This document shows positions 6,888-11,630 of a stretch of DNA of 35,244 nucleotides, in pieces (positions within the stretch are counted from its first letter, which is position 1; each line of letters begins with the position of its first letter). The stretch lies in IMG/VR virus record IMGVR_UViG_2740892431_000022; one strand, 5' to 3'. The notes beneath the pieces are model-generated. The model saw nothing but the letters and a program-made list of their open reading frames with translations, had not been told where the DNA came from and made no database searches. The position numbers and the translations under genes are program-made. Source of the DNA: a virus (Duplodnaviria > Heunggongvirae > Uroviricota > Caudoviricetes).

Positions 6888-8657
6888 TCAGTTGCCGTTA
6901 ACAATGCTGATAACACTGCTGCGTGCCGGCGTGGTCAGCGTGGCCATGACTTCATCCAGTGCAGCTTCCGGTACGCCGTCCGGGTACTGTGCCGTTAACT
7001 GGCGGTAATGTTCCGGCGTCCAGGTAAGGCCGTCGGCGCTGAACTTATCGCGCAGGGCTTTCGCGGCCTCCACATGAGTCATGGGACGTTGTTCAGTGCG
7101 CGGCCCGCGTACGTCAGAGGCCTGACCACGCTTCGGCATATAGGCCGGAAGTGTGGTGTCGTCGATATGTTTATACGGGTCAAGCCGCCCGCCGAACGGC
7201 AGCGCCTTCGCCTTGCGTGCGGCGGCTGCATCTGCGGCGTTGTCTGTACCGGTAACCAGCGCTTCAGTTTCTTTTGCCGCCATCTGTGCCGAGGTTTCCG
7301 GCAGGGCTTTGTAACTTTCGCCAAATACCGCCGCGCCTTCAGCAAAGCCAAACTCGTTCTTTCTGACCTCTTCGACCAGGAAGAACGTCTCGTGGCCGTC
7401 CTCACCGGTCAGAACCACCTGTGCCACATCGCTGCGCCATGGGTTACGGGTAATCATCAGTTTTTCACCAACCAGTACGCCCGGTACCGTTGATACGTCA
7501 AATTCAGTGCCCCGGAACGAGACACGAAGTTTTGGCGTGACTTTGCGGAGTTCTGGTGCCGCCACAGCCAGTTCACGACATACCTCAACGGAAGGCGCTT
7601 TTTTCAGCTGCTCAGCAGTAATCTTCAGCCAGATATCCGTGCGGGTTTTACCGTGGCGGCTGTGAACAGCCGTGGCGTTAAAGTGGCTGCGCCATTTCGC
7701 GGCCAGCGCGTTGAGTTCTTCCAGACTGTGAACCGGCCGGAACTTCAGCCCCGGCTCCAGCTTGCGTTCGATAATGTCACGCGCCTTTTCCACCTGTCCG
7801 GTGGCGCGGGCGTTATGCGGCTTGTGCGCTATCAGGTCGATGCCCAGTGAGCGGCACATGTTTTTCGTCATACCCGCGGTGTTTGCCGAGCCGGGGTCGA
7901 GATAGAGTATTTTCGGCACGCCGTGCAGCACGTCTGCGCCGCCACGCTCCTGCATGGCGTTGATAAGCACAGAACACAGGTTCTCACCTGATTCCGCGCC
8001 CGTCACATACTCAACGTAAATCCAGCCGCTGGCATGGTCGGTAATCTCGTAACTCCACACGCGGTCACTGGCGATACGGGCAAGGTTAGCGGGCTTGTTC
8101 TTGTAGAACTTCGCGCTGTCCATCACCTGCAGCCCTTTATGTCCATTGCTCAGGTAGTAAAGCGTGCAGAGTGAGGCGTCAATCTGCCAGACATGATTGG
8201 GATGCAGACTGGCCACTTCGGTATGTGGTGCAGGGGCATCCAGTTGTTCCGGGTGCAGGCCATAGTTACGCAGAGCACGGCTGATGGCATCTTCAGACAA
8301 CGGGAAAAACTCACTGGTGGTTTCATCTGTTCTGCCTGCGGTGATAAAGCCGTTAGCCCGCAGGGTTTCCACTGCATCTGCGATGGAATAGAGACGCTTA
8401 CCGTTCTTGCGGGTGGCCTCACGCAGTGTGGCAGATATCAGCGCGGCTTCGTCGCGGGTCAGGGCGCTGCGCCCGGCATCGGCGCGTTTTTTGCGTTTAT
8501 CAGTCACAGAGACCTCCTTCAGCCTGCGCAGCAGAGTGGCGCGGGACATGCCAAGTTCAGCACAGGCAGCGTCGTATATTGCACCGCGTTTACCATGCCC
8601 CGCGTCACGTGCCGCGCGGGCGACATAAACCAGTCGTTCAGTCAGGGCAGCATTCAT
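6888..8657 (-). CDS. Mu-type DDE transposase A
   Basis: 589 aa; N-terminal DNA-binding region, central rve-like core (...HVWQIDAS..., ...LYLDPGSANTAG...) and C-terminal region; GGAGG ribosome-binding site; immediately upstream of B. Confidence 0.92.
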   Translation of the reverse strand: MNAALTERLVYVARAARDAGHGKRGAIYDAACAELGMSRATLLRRLKEVSVTDKRKKRADAGRSALTRDEAALISATLREATRKNGKRLYSIADAVETLRANGFITAGRTDETTSEFFPLSEDAISRALRNYGLHPEQLDAPAPHTEVASLHPNHVWQIDASLCTLYYLSNGHKGLQVMDSAKFYKNKPANLARIASDRVWSYEITDHASGWIYVEYVTGAESGENLCSVLINAMQERGGADVLHGVPKILYLDPGSANTAGMTKNMCRSLGIDLIAHKPHNARATGQVEKARDIIERKLEPGLKFRPVHSLEELNALAAKWRSHFNATAVHSRHGKTRTDIWLKITAEQLKKAPSVEVCRELAVAAPELRKVTPKLRVSFRGTEFDVSTVPGVLVGEKLMITRNPWRSDVAQVVLTGEDGHETFFLVEEVRKNEFGFAEGAAVFGESYKALPETSAQMAAKETEALVTGTDNAADAAAARKAKALPFGGRLDPYKHIDDTTLPAYMPKRGQASDVRGPRTEQRPMTHVEAAKALRDKFSADGLTWTPEHYRQLTAQYPDGVPEAALDEVMATLTTPARSSVISIVNGN

Positions 8658-8660
8658 TGG

Positions 8661-9575
8661 TTATGCCTCCAGCCCGTTAATCTGTGGCGTCGGCTCAGTC
8701 AGCCATGAAGGCGCTGCATTGCCTGTTGGCTCGTCCGGCAGGTCAAATGTGGAGCGCAGGCTACGCGCTGTGCTTTCCAGTTGACAGACCAGGCCTGCCA
8801 TGAAGTCTCTGGGGGTATCAATCATGTTTTCAGCACAATATGCGCACAGCGTCTCAAAAGCGCTGGACAGTCGGACGGCGATAGCAGATTCCGCCTCAAC
8901 CGCTAATGCTGTTACTTCCGCCCGCAGCTTCTTAACCTCCTCATCAGGCTCAGGCGGCTGAATACGGGATTTCTTCTCCAGTCTGGTGGAGAGTGAATCT
9001 ATTTTTTCATTTTTGTCGGCGAGTACGCGCTGTTGTGCTGCGTTGGTTTCGCGCGCTTCGCGCAGGGCCTGACGCAATTCACGTACTGACATGCGATCAA
9101 CGTCGTCAAGCGTCAGGCCGGCAACTGTGCCGCCGTCGGCCAATTCATCAAGTTCTTCATTATCCAGAACCATCAGGTCGTACAGTTTGGCTTTCCCCAA
9201 AACGCTCAACGTTGAGCGTTTTGTTGGCTCATCACCTTCTCCCAAAAACTTCATACTGGCTTGCATCATGCGGCGAGCAACTTGTGGTGCAAGTCCGAGT
9301 TCATTTTCTAAAATGTTTGTAAAATCACCGTGTGGCTCATTTTCTTTTAAGATGATCAGCCGCTTACCCGCTTCCAGCATAGATTCAGCACTCTGCGCCA
9401 TATAAAAACGTGCTTCGTGAACAATGCGATCACGTTCATAAGGCAGTCCATCACCAAACTGCTGCATAATTTCCATGCGATGCTGTGTCATAGCGTTCAA
9501 ATTGACATTGATGTTATCTGACAGCGGAACCTCAACATTCAGTTCAGTGTTAACGGGTGATTTGGTGCGTCCCAT
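8661..9575 (-). CDS. Early protein, acidic with a predicted coiled coil (304 aa), function unknown
   Basis: AAGGAG ribosome-binding site; lies between the regulators and A; no confident family assignment. Confidence 0.7.
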   Translation of the reverse strand: MGRTKSPVNTELNVEVPLSDNINVNLNAMTQHRMEIMQQFGDGLPYERDRIVHEARFYMAQSAESMLEAGKRLIILKENEPHGDFTNILENELGLAPQVARRMMQASMKFLGEGDEPTKRSTLSVLGKAKLYDLMVLDNEELDELADGGTVAGLTLDDVDRMSVRELRQALREARETNAAQQRVLADKNEKIDSLSTRLEKKSRIQPPEPDEEVKKLRAEVTALAVEAESAIAVRLSSAFETLCAYCAENMIDTPRDFMAGLVCQLESTARSLRSTFDLPDEPTGNAAPSWLTEPTPQINGLEA

Positions 9576-9585
9576 TGATTACTCC

Positions 9586-9894
9586 TTACAAACGACTACC
9601 TGAAATAACTCGTTGGTTGATTTCGTTAATACGATCCTGTGCACGCGCCATCTCGTGACTGTGAGCCATGGCGATCTGTAGTAACTGGATTCCCGGTGCG
9701 AAACGTCCGTTCTCTAATTTCATGGCCAGTCCCTCTTCAATAAGGGTATTAAGTGCTCGATTGATATTCGCCGGGGACTCCCCCAGGGCTGATGCCAGTT
9801 CACCGTTAGAAACACCGTTCAGAGCATGACCGCGTAGAGCTTTGAGTACACGTAGGATGCGGGTCCCAGAACTGGAAATATTTACTTTACTCAT
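9586..9894 (-). CDS. Winged-helix (IclR/MarR-like) DNA-binding protein
   Basis: ...SGTRILRVLKALRGHALNGVSNGELASALGESPANINRALNTLIEEGL... resembles a wHTH; start at 9894 (MSKVN...) preferred over 9957; neither start has a strong ribosome-binding site. Confidence 0.55.
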   Translation of the reverse strand: MSKVNISSSGTRILRVLKALRGHALNGVSNGELASALGESPANINRALNTLIEEGLAMKLENGRFAPGIQLLQIAMAHSHEMARAQDRINEINQRVISGSRL

Positions 9895-9910
9895 GTCACA
9901 TTTCCATTTT

Positions 9911-9941
9911 TGCAATATGTGATAACCTGTTGCATATGTGG
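9911..9941. promoter_or_regulatory. Direct repeats TGCAATATGTG (9911-9921) and TGCATATGTGG (9931-9941), spaced 20 bp
   Basis: Related copies at 10154-10163 (TGCAATGATG) and 10172-10181 (ATATGTGATA) in the divergent promoter region. Confidence 0.35.
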
Positions 9942-9946
9942 AAAAT

Positions 9947-10135
9947 TTATGCCGCATTTGACGTGGGTTTTAATCCCAGTTTTACGGCAATTTCATGGGC
10001 TTTGCCGTAACGAGCTTTGGTCTGTCCATTGAGAACACGATAGACCTCATTGCGGCTGTAGCCGTGTTCTTCGGCCCAGCGGGTAAACGTGATACCACGC
10101 TGACGGAAGAGATTTTTAACTTGTTCGGAAGTCAT
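9947..10135 (-). CDS. ner: Ner-like DNA-binding protein (Ner/Nlp family)
   Basis: 62 aa; ...FTRWAEEHGYSRNEVYRVL...GKAHEIAVKLGLKP parallels the Mu Ner HTH and C-terminal segment; AAAGGAGA ribosome-binding site; first gene of the leftward operon. Confidence 0.75.
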   Translation of the reverse strand: MTSEQVKNLFRQRGITFTRWAEEHGYSRNEVYRVLNGQTKARYGKAHEIAVKLGLKPTSNAA

Positions 10136-10182
10136 TGTTGTCTCCTTTGTTGATGCAATGATGTTTGTTTTATATGTGATAG

Positions 10183-10211
10183 ATTATGAGAACTATTGTT
10201 CTCATTGTCAA
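10183..10211 (-). promoter_or_regulatory. Early promoter Pe (minus strand): -35 TTGACA, 17-bp spacer, -10 CATAAT
   Basis: Reverse complement of 10206-10211 is TTGACA and of 10183-10188 is CATAAT; about 45 nt upstream of the ner-like ATG. Confidence 0.6.
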
Positions 10212-10214
10212 TGA
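10186..10214. promoter_or_regulatory. Operator-like palindromes overlapping Pe
   Basis: ATGAGAAC-tatt-GTTCTCAT (10186-10205, 8-bp arms) fills the Pe spacer; TCATTG-t-CAATGA (10202-10214) overlaps the -35. Confidence 0.55.
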
Positions 10215-10221
10215 GGTTTGT

Positions 10222-10647
10222 GTGAATTTTGATTCTCTTTGCGCGTCGCGGTTCAAAGCTGAGCGTTCGCGGTTATCACTCAAGCAGGCTGAAGTAGCAG
10301 CCCTTTGTGGCGTTTCAAGAGAAATGTGGGGGAAATATGAACGAGGGGTTGCTGTTCCCGGAGGTGAGTTACTTGCAGCCTTTGCAAGAATTGGGGCCAA
10401 TGTACAGTTCATTCTTACCGGGGAGTCATCAGGTATAACTTTATCACGTGATGAAATGGAGTTACTGCAGCACTACCGGCAGGCACCATTACAGGTCAAA
10501 GGTTCAGTTTTGTCGGCCTTGACTACTGGCTCCTCCAGAGAACGGGCGGAACAGGTTATTCATGGAGATGTTCTGGGGAATGTTATCAAAGGTAACGTAA
10601 CCATAGGAACAGGTGGAATAATGAACAAAAATACCAAGAGAAGATGA
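10222..10647 (+). CDS. XRE-family HTH repressor-like protein
   Basis: HTH ...LSLKQAEVAALCGVSREMWGKYERG...; divergent from the ner-A-B operon; GTG at 10222 has GAGG 5 nt upstream; the ORF-track ATG at 10186 lies inside the operator palindrome (a leaderless start there is not excluded). Confidence 0.7.
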   Translation: MNFDSLCASRFKAERSRLSLKQAEVAALCGVSREMWGKYERGVAVPGGELLAAFARIGANVQFILTGESSGITLSRDEMELLQHYRQAPLQVKGSVLSALTTGSSRERAEQVIHGDVLGNVIKGNVTIGTGGIMNKNTKRR

Positions 10648-11630
10648 GTAAAGAGAAGCAAACAGTTAACGGGGATGTGGGTAACGTTGTCAGCGGTGAT
10701 GTTACCATTCATAACTATTCTGCTGACATACTTCCTTCGGCCCAGCAACCAATTTCGTTGCTGCAAAAACGCGATTTACACAGATTGATGGATGAATTGG
10801 TTGATCTGGGGGAAAGTAAGCGCGAGCTATGGATGACGATCCACACGAAACTTAATACCAAAACAGTTAATGAAATGACTGCGGCTGATTATCATGGTGC
10901 GGTTGAGATCCTTCAGAGATATGCACAACAGATCCAGAATATGAAGGACTGTAATCTTCTGGTCAGCAAAATAATGGCGCTTACTGACCCTGGGTATCGT
11001 CTTGACCGTGACAGATACTGTCTGAAGCATTTCGGTACAACCCATCTTAAAGGCCTAGACAAAGAGCAGTTGCAGGCTGTGTTTGGTTATTTTGATGATC
11101 TGCTGAATATTCGTGATGAGAGTAAAACTCTATCACCTCCATCGGAAAGCGGTGCAAAATCAGTCGCAACTGTACCAACCAGAAGCTGGAAGCCTCATGT
11201 AGTAGTGTTGGGGGGAGTGTTAGTTCTTGTAGCAATATTTTTCGTGGGAATGATTGTGTTCGCTGGTAAATGGGGAAATGCCAAAGCAGTAGCTTCTACT
11301 GAAACCAGCGTTTTTAACATTAAAACCAACGATAAAATAATAGAAGATTCCATCCCCGCACTGCGCAGCATGTTTCCAGGGTTAAATAAGTACTCAGATG
11401 ATTTCCATTCGGTTTCAAGCTACAAGCAAAAAACGGGCTGGCATACCCTTAAATTTACTGTATCAGCAAAGGCATCCGTCCCCGAAAATTATAGTGTTAA
11501 GGGCAAGGTTTGTTACATTAACATAAGCCCTGATGGTAGTTATGCTCGGGTTTTGACTGCTCCATGTCGTTCACTGCTACTTGATCAGCAAAGCACTCCT
11601 GACAGTAAATACCGTTTTATTCTTAAATAG
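10644..11630 (+). CDS. Single-pass membrane protein (328 aa), unknown function
   Basis: ATG overlaps the repressor stop (ATGA); roughly 180-aa N-terminal domain, one TM (HVVVLGGVLVLVAIFFVGMIVFAG), roughly 120-aa C-terminal domain with two Cys; sampled GC about 33-47 percent. Confidence 0.75.
   Translation: MSKEKQTVNGDVGNVVSGDVTIHNYSADILPSAQQPISLLQKRDLHRLMDELVDLGESKRELWMTIHTKLNTKTVNEMTAADYHGAVEILQRYAQQIQNMKDCNLLVSKIMALTDPGYRLDRDRYCLKHFGTTHLKGLDKEQLQAVFGYFDDLLNIRDESKTLSPPSESGAKSVATVPTRSWKPHVVVLGGVLVLVAIFFVGMIVFAGKWGNAKAVASTETSVFNIKTNDKIIEDSIPALRSMFPGLNKYSDDFHSVSSYKQKTGWHTLKFTVSAKASVPENYSVKGKVCYINISPDGSYARVLTAPCRSLLLDQQSTPDSKYRFILK

Follow-up and report, generated by a model that had tools for sequence, protein, structure and literature searches.

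The closest described counterparts of the control region treated here, which occupies positions 10,136-10,221 of a 35,244-nucleotide stretch of viral DNA (IMG/VR record IMGVR_UViG_2740892431_000022; the whole stretch is hereafter called the window), are the switches of the Pseudomonas phages B3 and Fc02 (Beetrevirus). The window is an Escherichia coli transposable prophage of the Bcepmuvirus/B3 type (B3/BcepMu-type), and its gene content is consistent with this assignment. As in B3 and Fc02, a gp16-family "ner-like" gene stands first in the leftward early operon and is divergent from a gene for an XRE/P22-C2-like repressor, and the short regulatory stretch measures 85 bp in B3, 106 bp in Fc02 (PMC9936078), and 86 bp here. 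Upon inactivation of a temperature-sensitive (ts) repressor, RNA sequencing (RNA-seq) of Fc02 detected a burst of transcription from the promoter pE beginning at the ner-like gene (Ramirez-Sanchez et al., 2023, PMC9936078), and the predicted promoters pC2 and pE overlap within the 106-bp stretch (PMC9936078). The compact overlapping-promoter layout is already described for pE/pC2 of the closest known systems (Braid et al., 2004, as cited in PMC9936078). Both early promoters carry a dyad in the spacer, as does the one described below (TTGACA-GGTGCAATATTTGGCAC-CACTAT in B3 and TTGACT-ATGGGACTTTGATGTCC-CAATAT in Fc02); we found no operators of B3 or Fc02 defined in the accessible literature, and the operator assignments O1 and O2 used below come from the present analysis. 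The locus differs from B3 and Fc02 in its host, which is E. coli, and in its immunity specificity. Moreover, the B3 block of ORF15/ORF16 (gene 10, olg1/olg2) and the distal pC1 region have no counterpart here; no consensus-like promoter was found on the plus strand in 9400-11000, hence no equivalent of distal pC1.

The lambdoid switches (lambda, 434, P22 c2/cro) share with this locus the divergent repressor and early genes and the Cro/CI-type domain, the closest one being the N-terminal domain of P22 C2. Lambdoid operators are dyad-symmetric, overlap the lytic promoter, and are immunity-specific, as they appear to be here. However, instead of three graded sites, the present locus has one strong operator confined to the promoter spacer and one weak site; its repressor is devoid of the S24 autocleavage domain, there is no room for an operator-activated PRM-like promoter, the immunity cassette does not include the protein in the Cro position, which cannot share the operators, and the repressor mRNA is not predicted to be leaderless. 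In phage Mu, also a transposable phage, the c/ner/Pe-Pc switch has an equivalent function: the repressor gene diverges from an early operon whose first gene encodes a small DNA-binding protein and in which the transposase genes come next. In contrast to Mu, the repressor here is of the XRE/P22-C2 type rather than Mu c, gp16 does not belong to the Ner family, and 86 bp with one strong dyad take the place of the long multi-site O1-O3 region, which in Mu covers roughly 200 bp and includes an integration host factor (IHF) site and an enhancer; in addition, the switch is located about 8 kb from the left end of the prophage, whereas in Mu it is at the end. The description of a divergent region of under 90 bp, much shorter than that of Mu, in an earlier note on this DNA therefore holds, given a start-to-start gap of 86 bp between the divergent genes with the repressor start at GTG 10222.

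We consider it very probable that this region is an immunity switch, in which a strong early promoter (Pe) contains the main operator (O1) of the divergently encoded XRE-type repressor, supplemented by a weaker operator (O2), with the transcription starts and the binding being predicted. The mechanism, in which a repressor bound to an operator in the promoter spacer acts sterically, is classical, and the switch is of an ordinary phage kind. The immunity region is 100% identical to that of prophages in E. coli IAI39, CE10, ST131, and other strains; it is present as a whole in 127 of the 5,426 complete E. coli genomes, while the early-gene side alone is matched at 80-90% identity in several hundred further E. 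coli genomes, which contain related phages with a different immunity region. Among phages, Escherichia phage PhiKM (Bcepmuvirus) and Klebsiella KP12 are the closest, the similarity to Pseudomonas phage B3 being weaker. The positions proposed for Pe, O1, O2, and the repressor start make up a testable lysogeny-switch map for this transposable prophage.

The early promoter and the probable operator in its spacer

Pe is located on the minus strand and comprises the -35 hexamer TTGACA (10206..10211, 6/6 consensus matches) and the -10 hexamer CATAAT (10183..10188, 5/6), separated by a 17-nt spacer (10205-10189); its predicted transcription start is at about 10175-10177. This is the TTGACA-N17-CATAAT promoter located by the earlier note, and the distance from the -10 hexamer to the ATG (10135) of the first early gene is 47 nt, compared with the approximately 45 nt given there. 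With 11 of 12 positions matching TTGACA/TATAAT and a spacer in the 16-18-nt range, Pe has the composition of a sigma-70 promoter. It is the sole match of a promoter consensus scan in 9400-11000, and the sole site with at least 11 of 12 sigma-70 matches on either strand of the whole 35-kb window, where 0.22 such sites are expected from 100 dinucleotide shuffles of the window.

The same design is conserved among relatives. We collected 80 IMG/VR loci that encode gp16 relatives and aligned them on the gp16 start, which yielded 40 distinct promoter cores. All 40 contain a -35-like hexamer in the same position, a 16-18-nt spacer, and a -10-like hexamer located, in most of them, about 46-47 nt upstream of the gp16 start, and these positions are kept despite differing spacer sequences. 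It is exactly at the Pe -10 hexamer that the homology between heteroimmune phages sets in. For instance, PhiKM shares the gp16 gene and its leader with the window, and the similarity ends at window position ~10187, inside the -10 hexamer; beyond this breakpoint, PhiKM has TTGATA-N17-AATAAT, with the spacer filled by a different perfect 18-bp palindrome, TGCTCATAATTATGAGCA.

The spacer of Pe is occupied by O1 (10186..10205, strandless), a perfect dyad ATGAGAAC-TATT-GTTCTCAT of the form 8+4+8, which spans approximately -29 to -10 of Pe, that is, the spacer together with 3 nt of the -10 hexamer. The inverted repeat with 8-bp arms that the earlier note had reported is thus present at this place, and it represents a dyad in the 14-20-bp range overlapping the core lytic promoter, as expected of an operator. 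No second copy of O1 with three or fewer mismatches was found anywhere in the window. The best partial match (12/16), at 7968-7987 in the transposase gene, was rejected as an O1 copy because it is identical in the heteroimmune phage PhiKM and is set by the coding sequence; its core CAGAAC-ACAG-GTTCTC agrees with the O1 core in 11 of 12 positions, and the PhiKM counterpart encodes ...GENLCS..., so that this likeness is most likely a coincidence. The O1-like stretch CATTGAGAAC...CCTCATTG in the gp16 gene (10027-10052) was attributed to chance as well, since its arms are differently spaced and it is conserved in heteroimmune PhiKM as gp16 coding sequence.

Palindromes with a score of at least 6, centred within 0-1.5 nt of the spacer centre, are present in 22 of the 40 cores, as compared with 2.5% of random 24-mers from the same loci. 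The relatives contain more than 12 unrelated spacer dyads, each immunity type having its own palindrome, such as TATACAC-GATT-GTGTATA, ATCCCAT-TT-ATGGGAT, GTCTAA-TTTT-TTAGAC, TGTGAT-N6-ATCACA, AGTTTG-ATTAA-CAAACT, and GGTATAAATTTATATACC.

The immunity repressor gene (10222..10647, plus strand) lies adjacent to this promoter and encodes, from GTG 10222, a 141-aa protein with an N-terminal helix-turn-helix (HTH) domain of the XRE/Cro-CI type and a short C-terminal domain. The protein matches the Pfam families HTH_31/HTH_3, its residues 5-70 align to residues 4-70 of P22 C2 (E=9e-5), and no S24 peptidase domain was found in it by Pfam; O1 is thus accompanied by an adjacent Cro/CI-type repressor gene. 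The divergent open reading frames (ORFs) of the relatives likewise encode, in nearly all cases, small XRE-type proteins that combine an N-terminal HTH domain with one of several short C-terminal domains. Comparison of these proteins across the loci L001-L082 revealed that the repressors of this phage group are two-domain mosaics, in which one HTH domain can be joined to unrelated C-terminal domains, and one C-terminal domain to unrelated HTH domains. For example, a common C-terminal domain is found in the window and L032, and another in L001 and L073. In L063, L066, and L082, long LexA-like repressors with an S24 domain are found instead.

The spacer palindrome follows the N-terminal HTH domain of the repressor, and neither its C-terminal domain nor gp16, as judged from the comparison of these loci. 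The window, L014, L042, and L059 share a recognition helix and the half-sites GAGAAC-N4-GTTC(T/A)C, the right half-site being GTTCTC in the window and L059 and GTTCAC in L014 and L042. The L014 and L042 repressors are 80-95% identical to that of the window, whereas in L059 the HTH domain is 66% identical and the C-terminal domain is unrelated. Conversely, L032 has a window-like C-terminal domain, a different HTH domain, and the operator TGTGAT-N6-ATCACA, which is common to L077 with yet another C-terminal domain; in L040 and L073, the operator also tracks the HTH domain and not the C-terminal one. In a Mantel test on 26 types, operator identity correlated with HTH-domain identity (r=0.68, p=2e-4) and less with C-terminal domain identity (r=0.24). 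On the other hand, L001 and L015 have gp16 proteins with 100% identity, as do L026 and L021, yet the palindromes differ within each pair (for the first pair, TGCTCATAATTATGAGCA and GGTGAGGTAATCTGCACC, respectively), which means that gp16 cannot be the specific binder of these palindromes. In heteroimmune relatives the operator thus changes together with the DNA-binding domain of the repressor, subject to the physical linkage discussed below. The resulting catalogue of more than 12 naturally matched HTH/operator pairs on one promoter scaffold could serve as a source of orthogonal repressor-promoter parts.

The core idea of the earlier note, namely a strong early promoter with the repressor operator in its spacer, is upheld by these comparisons: 40 cores keep the hexamers, 22 of them have strong dyads, and the dyad tracks the repressor HTH domain. 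It is also supported by the RNA-seq data for Fc02, where the homologous operon, with the ner-like gene first, switches on once the ts repressor is inactivated (PMC9936078).

The probable repressor start, and candidates for a second operator and a repressor promoter

The RefSeq/PGAP annotation places the repressor start at ATG 10186 (WP_001259268.1, 153 aa). In L014 and L042, an in-frame TGA comes immediately after the equivalent of this ATG. Conservation is seen instead for GTG 10222 and its Shine-Dalgarno (SD) sequence (GAGG/GGAG/GGGG); in the window, the SD sequence GAGG is located at 10213-10216, 5 nt upstream of GTG 10222. Since, in addition, the alignment with P22 C2 begins at residue 5, the repressor probably starts at GTG 10222, and the RefSeq version is probably 12 codons too long, which corrects the annotated repressor start. 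The ATG at 10186 within the operator, to which the earlier note had drawn attention, does exist; however, the leaderless repressor mRNA that it could allow according to the note, as in lambda PRM, is not supported in view of the TGA that comes next in L014 and L042 and of the conservation of GTG 10222 with its SD sequence.

A candidate auxiliary operator, O2 (GTGTGAATTTTGATTCTCTT; 10220..10239, strandless), matches O1 in 11 of 16 arm positions. The centres of O1 and O2 are 34 bp apart. O2 reaches into the repressor gene, where it overlaps the start codon and codons 1-6, and corresponds to approximately -63 to -44 relative to Pe. When the upstream region of each family was searched with the O1 of that same family, 17 of 22 families had their best match 29-34 bp upstream, in the direction of the repressor gene or within it, with similarities of up to 89% (L077), 82% (L055), and 80% (L074), and own-type matches exceeded cross-type matches (Mann-Whitney U p=2e-11). 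Furthermore, the 21-nt block 10221-10241 is invariant in L014 and L042, whereas about a quarter of the positions differ in the coding sequence next to it. As a test for multiple operator copies, the window site taken alone is weak and the family-wide pattern is strong; O2 is therefore regarded as a probable second operator, with weaker evidence than for O1.

The earlier note had proposed a different second operator, a palindrome over the -35 hexamer; O2, which is the better candidate, lies beyond the span treated in that note. This palindrome exists and is longer than the 10202-10214 given at that time, comprising CTCATTG-T-CAATGAG at 10201..10215 (strandless), but its role as an operator is not supported, because it is lost in L014 and L042, which have the same immunity: the corresponding sequences CCATTGACAATGA (L014) and CCGTTGACAGTGA (L042) are not palindromic and keep only the SD-like GGAG/GGGG. 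The palindrome arises in the window because TTGACA, the O1 arm ATGAG, and the SD sequence GAGG adjoin, and it is probably incidental.

In nearly all relatives, the repressor start is located about 6-30 nt beyond the Pe -35 hexamer, which leaves no place for a proximal repressor promoter that does not overlap Pe and O1. The candidate for such a promoter in the window (Pc; 10177..10187, plus strand) consists of an extended -10 element TGaTAGATT (10177-10185) overlapped by GATTAT (10182-10187), both of which overlap the Pe -10 hexamer. Its transcription start is predicted, with low to moderate confidence, at approximately 10192-10195, inside O1, in which case Pc would be autorepressed. Alternative -10 elements for Pc are found at the dyad centre and at TGcAATGAT (10154-10162), and sequence alone does not discriminate between them. 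The arrangement resembles bidirectional sigma-70 promoters with overlapping -10 elements (Warman et al., bioRxiv 10.1101/2020.01.31.928960), as Pe CATAAT with the following C reads GATTAT on the other strand, and A2 and T6 of the two hexamers pair; however, this symmetry is mostly automatic for any xATAAT hexamer and constitutes weak evidence, the likeness here being one of sequence geometry.

On these grounds, we propose that a repressor dimer on O1, at about -29 to -10, would exclude RNA polymerase from Pe and thereby maintain lysogeny. O2, situated about three helical turns from O1 over the repressor start, would probably serve cooperative binding and/or negative autoregulation that limits repressor synthesis. 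Loss of the repressor would free the near-consensus Pe and lead to transcription of the transposition/replication operon. The repressor itself would be translated from GTG 10222 with a normal Shine-Dalgarno sequence, and gp16 would not recognise these operators.

Alternative explanations and a possible minimal immunity cassette

Several observations weigh against this switch model. Support for the switch in this phage is sequence-based throughout. Perfect palindromes with 8-bp arms are not rare per se, six distinct ones being present in the window as compared with ~4.5 expected hits, so that the significance of O1 comes only from its placement in the spacer and from the comparison with relatives; about 18 of the 40 cores carry imperfect dyads only. 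The operator lies ~20 bp from the DNA that encodes the HTH domain, and the two would be co-inherited even without interaction, so the correlation between them is partly confounded. As for O2 taken alone, the number of 11/16 matches to O1 in the window (nine observed against 7.8 expected) is at chance level, which leaves position and family pattern as its support, and the O2-like site of Fc02 is 24 bp away rather than ~31-34 bp. Pc has a poor -35 element, and its extended -10 element is conserved only in the enterobacterial group, where the whole leader is conserved. Finally, the lysogenic repressor transcript of Fc02 appears to originate mainly from distal pC1 (PMC9936078).

An extreme form of these doubts would be that a promoter-like sequence and a palindrome coincide by chance, and that the real early promoter and operators are located elsewhere, for example in the flanking genes. 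The chance-level frequency of 8-bp-arm palindromes and the fact that the Pe start site is predicted only would agree with this. We nevertheless regard it as extremely unlikely, since Pe is the only match of at least 11/12 in the window, the same architecture, equally far from the gp16 start, recurs in 40 cores from Enterobacteria, Pseudomonas B3 and Fc02, and metagenomic relatives, and RNA-seq of Fc02 places pE in the equivalent short region (PMC9936078). The palindrome might instead act as RNA, either as a terminator or by forming a hairpin in the repressor mRNA's 5' leader and thereby controlling stability or translation. With a Pc start inside O1 or to its left, transcription just upstream of the repressor SD sequence would include all or part of the dyad, and a varied sequence with conserved symmetry would fit a hairpin. 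This explanation is hardly credible given that distant phages with differing gp16, leader, and C-terminal domain share a half-site exactly when the HTH recognition helix is shared (the window and L059; L032 and L077), that a second, similar, non-hairpin copy recurs about three helical turns away, as is typical for protein operators, and that the dyad is fixed to the -35/-10 frame within 0-1.5 nt. Moreover, a scan of 9400-11000 yielded no terminator-like site and there was no Rfam match.

A further alternative concerns the product of the first early gene. This gene (9947..10135, minus strand) encodes a 62-aa HTH protein of the BcepMu gp16 family (TIGR04111, E=2.8e-27, 94.4 bits against a cut-off of 34, model positions 1-55 of 55; phrog_925), which is the only family whose curated cut-off is passed, the single Pfam match, HTH_31, being below its cut-off. 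The spacer palindrome could be the gp16 site, at which gp16 would shut off both divergent promoters as Mu Ner and lambda Cro do. Gp16 is indeed small, belongs to the HTH proteins, and is the first product of the early operon, and its single-sequence model, with a predicted local distance difference test (pLDDT) score of 81, weakly resembles XRE domains, among them 434 Cro and the 434 repressor (E of at least 0.18); lambdoid Cro shares the operators of the repressor. However, the two pairs of identical gp16 proteins combined with unrelated palindromes, together with a heteroimmune mosaic boundary at the Pe -10 hexamer that assigns neither gp16 nor the leader to the immunity cassette, make this a very doubtful explanation, and the protein in the Cro/Ner position of these phages is thereby shown to be unable to act through the repressor operators. 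The designation of the gene as ner-like in the earlier note also has to be revised: the product is a Cro/CI-type HTH protein of the BcepMu gp16 family without detectable similarity to Mu Ner, as it gave no match to the Ner model in Pfam and has no sequence relative in PDB, Mu Ner included, and Ner is absent from the top 50 Foldseek hits of its model, which are weak overall. Gp16 is an analogue of Cro and Ner by position only.

Returning to the spacer dyad as the repressor operator, we tentatively extend this reading to a minimal exchangeable immunity cassette in the B3/BcepMu-like group, a possibility that we hold to be rather less than even. The cassette would consist of the HTH domain, O2, the -35 hexamer, and O1, with breakpoints at the Pe -10 hexamer and in the interdomain linker of the repressor. 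Gp16 and its presumed leader target (the TTGCATCA motif) would lie outside and be common to heteroimmune phages, anti-repression would not be immunity-specific, and one dyad would serve two promoters with overlapping -10 elements. If this were true, the independence of anti-repression from immunity would distinguish these phages from both lambda and Mu.

The early leader and neighbouring genes

The predicted early-transcript leader (10136..10182, minus strand) contains the SD sequence GGAG (10142-10145) and a motif conserved across immunity types. On the early strand this motif reads CATCATTGCATCA (10152-10164), with an invariant core TTGCA, and is located 8-10 nt upstream of the gp16 SD sequence; it is found in all immunity types and in distant relatives including B3. 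The motif may be the gp16 binding site, or it may be part of a promoter in the repressor direction (TGcAATGAT on the plus strand). RNAalifold, applied to 24 diverse leaders, detected no consensus RNA structure, a suspected compensatory change of GCAA/TTGC to ACAA/TTGT was not borne out, and a permissive Rfam scan of 9500-10800 returned nothing meaningful.

The early operon on the minus strand encodes, in this order, the BcepMu gp16-family HTH protein, an IclR-like winged-helix (wHTH) protein, a DUF3102 protein, a DDE transposase, an ExeA-family protein in the MuB position, and Gam, and continues onward to Mor. On the plus strand, the gene of the XRE-type HTH protein is followed by two unknown ORFs and then by lysis and structural genes. 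The transposase (6888-8657, 589 aa) aligns to PHROG 310 from profile position 129 on, the first ~128 positions being absent, and may thus be without the N-terminal enhancer/operator-binding domain of the MuA type. The repressor and the next ORF (10644-11630) overlap by ATGA (10644-10647), which suggests translational coupling of the two. In addition, the C-terminal tail of the repressor, HGDVLGNVIKGNVTIG, resembles the N-terminus of the next ORF, NGDVGNVVSGDVTIHNY, and the N-terminal region of this ORF weakly matches Flk (NF007987, E=3.5e-12, far below the cut-off).

The gap between the gp16 stop and the start of the IclR-like wHTH gene (9895-9946) forms a conserved non-coding block, which on the early strand reads GTAACAGGTTATCACATATTGCAAAAA. 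It contains an imperfect 20-nt inverted repeat within 9901-9944, and the 10-nt string ATATGTGATA (9915-9924), which is identical to the start of the Pe transcript (10172-10181). This gap may be an internal regulatory site; a third promoter at a comparable position has been reported for B3 (PMC9936078).

Another palindrome is located inside the DUF3102 gene (8661-9575, minus strand), where CAAAACGCTCAAC|GTTGAGCGTTTTG forms a perfect 26-bp dyad at 9198-9223. The DUF3102 protein has no PDB relative, no literature on its function was found, and its single-sequence AlphaFold model (pLDDT 45) is unusable. Some DUF3102 homologues (the ~312-aa class) are without the palindrome. Within the window, recurrence of its half-site is not above the chance level, and no partner protein could be assigned to it; the window and L011 have neighbouring wHTH proteins with 96% identity, though their palindromes differ. 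The relatives contain a perfect palindrome of 22-28 bp at the same codon (~116-118), in which the inner sequence and the encoded peptide differ; otherwise identical arms can enclose either ACGT or GCGC at the centre. Among 16 distinct sequences, 96.9% of the cells are paired, compared with 31-48% in controls with out-of-register slid pairing, and nine of the 14 pairs change on both sides, with G-U type intermediates almost nil. This pattern points to dyad symmetry being constrained at the DNA level, in the form of a cis-acting site or a bidirectional hairpin within the coding sequence.

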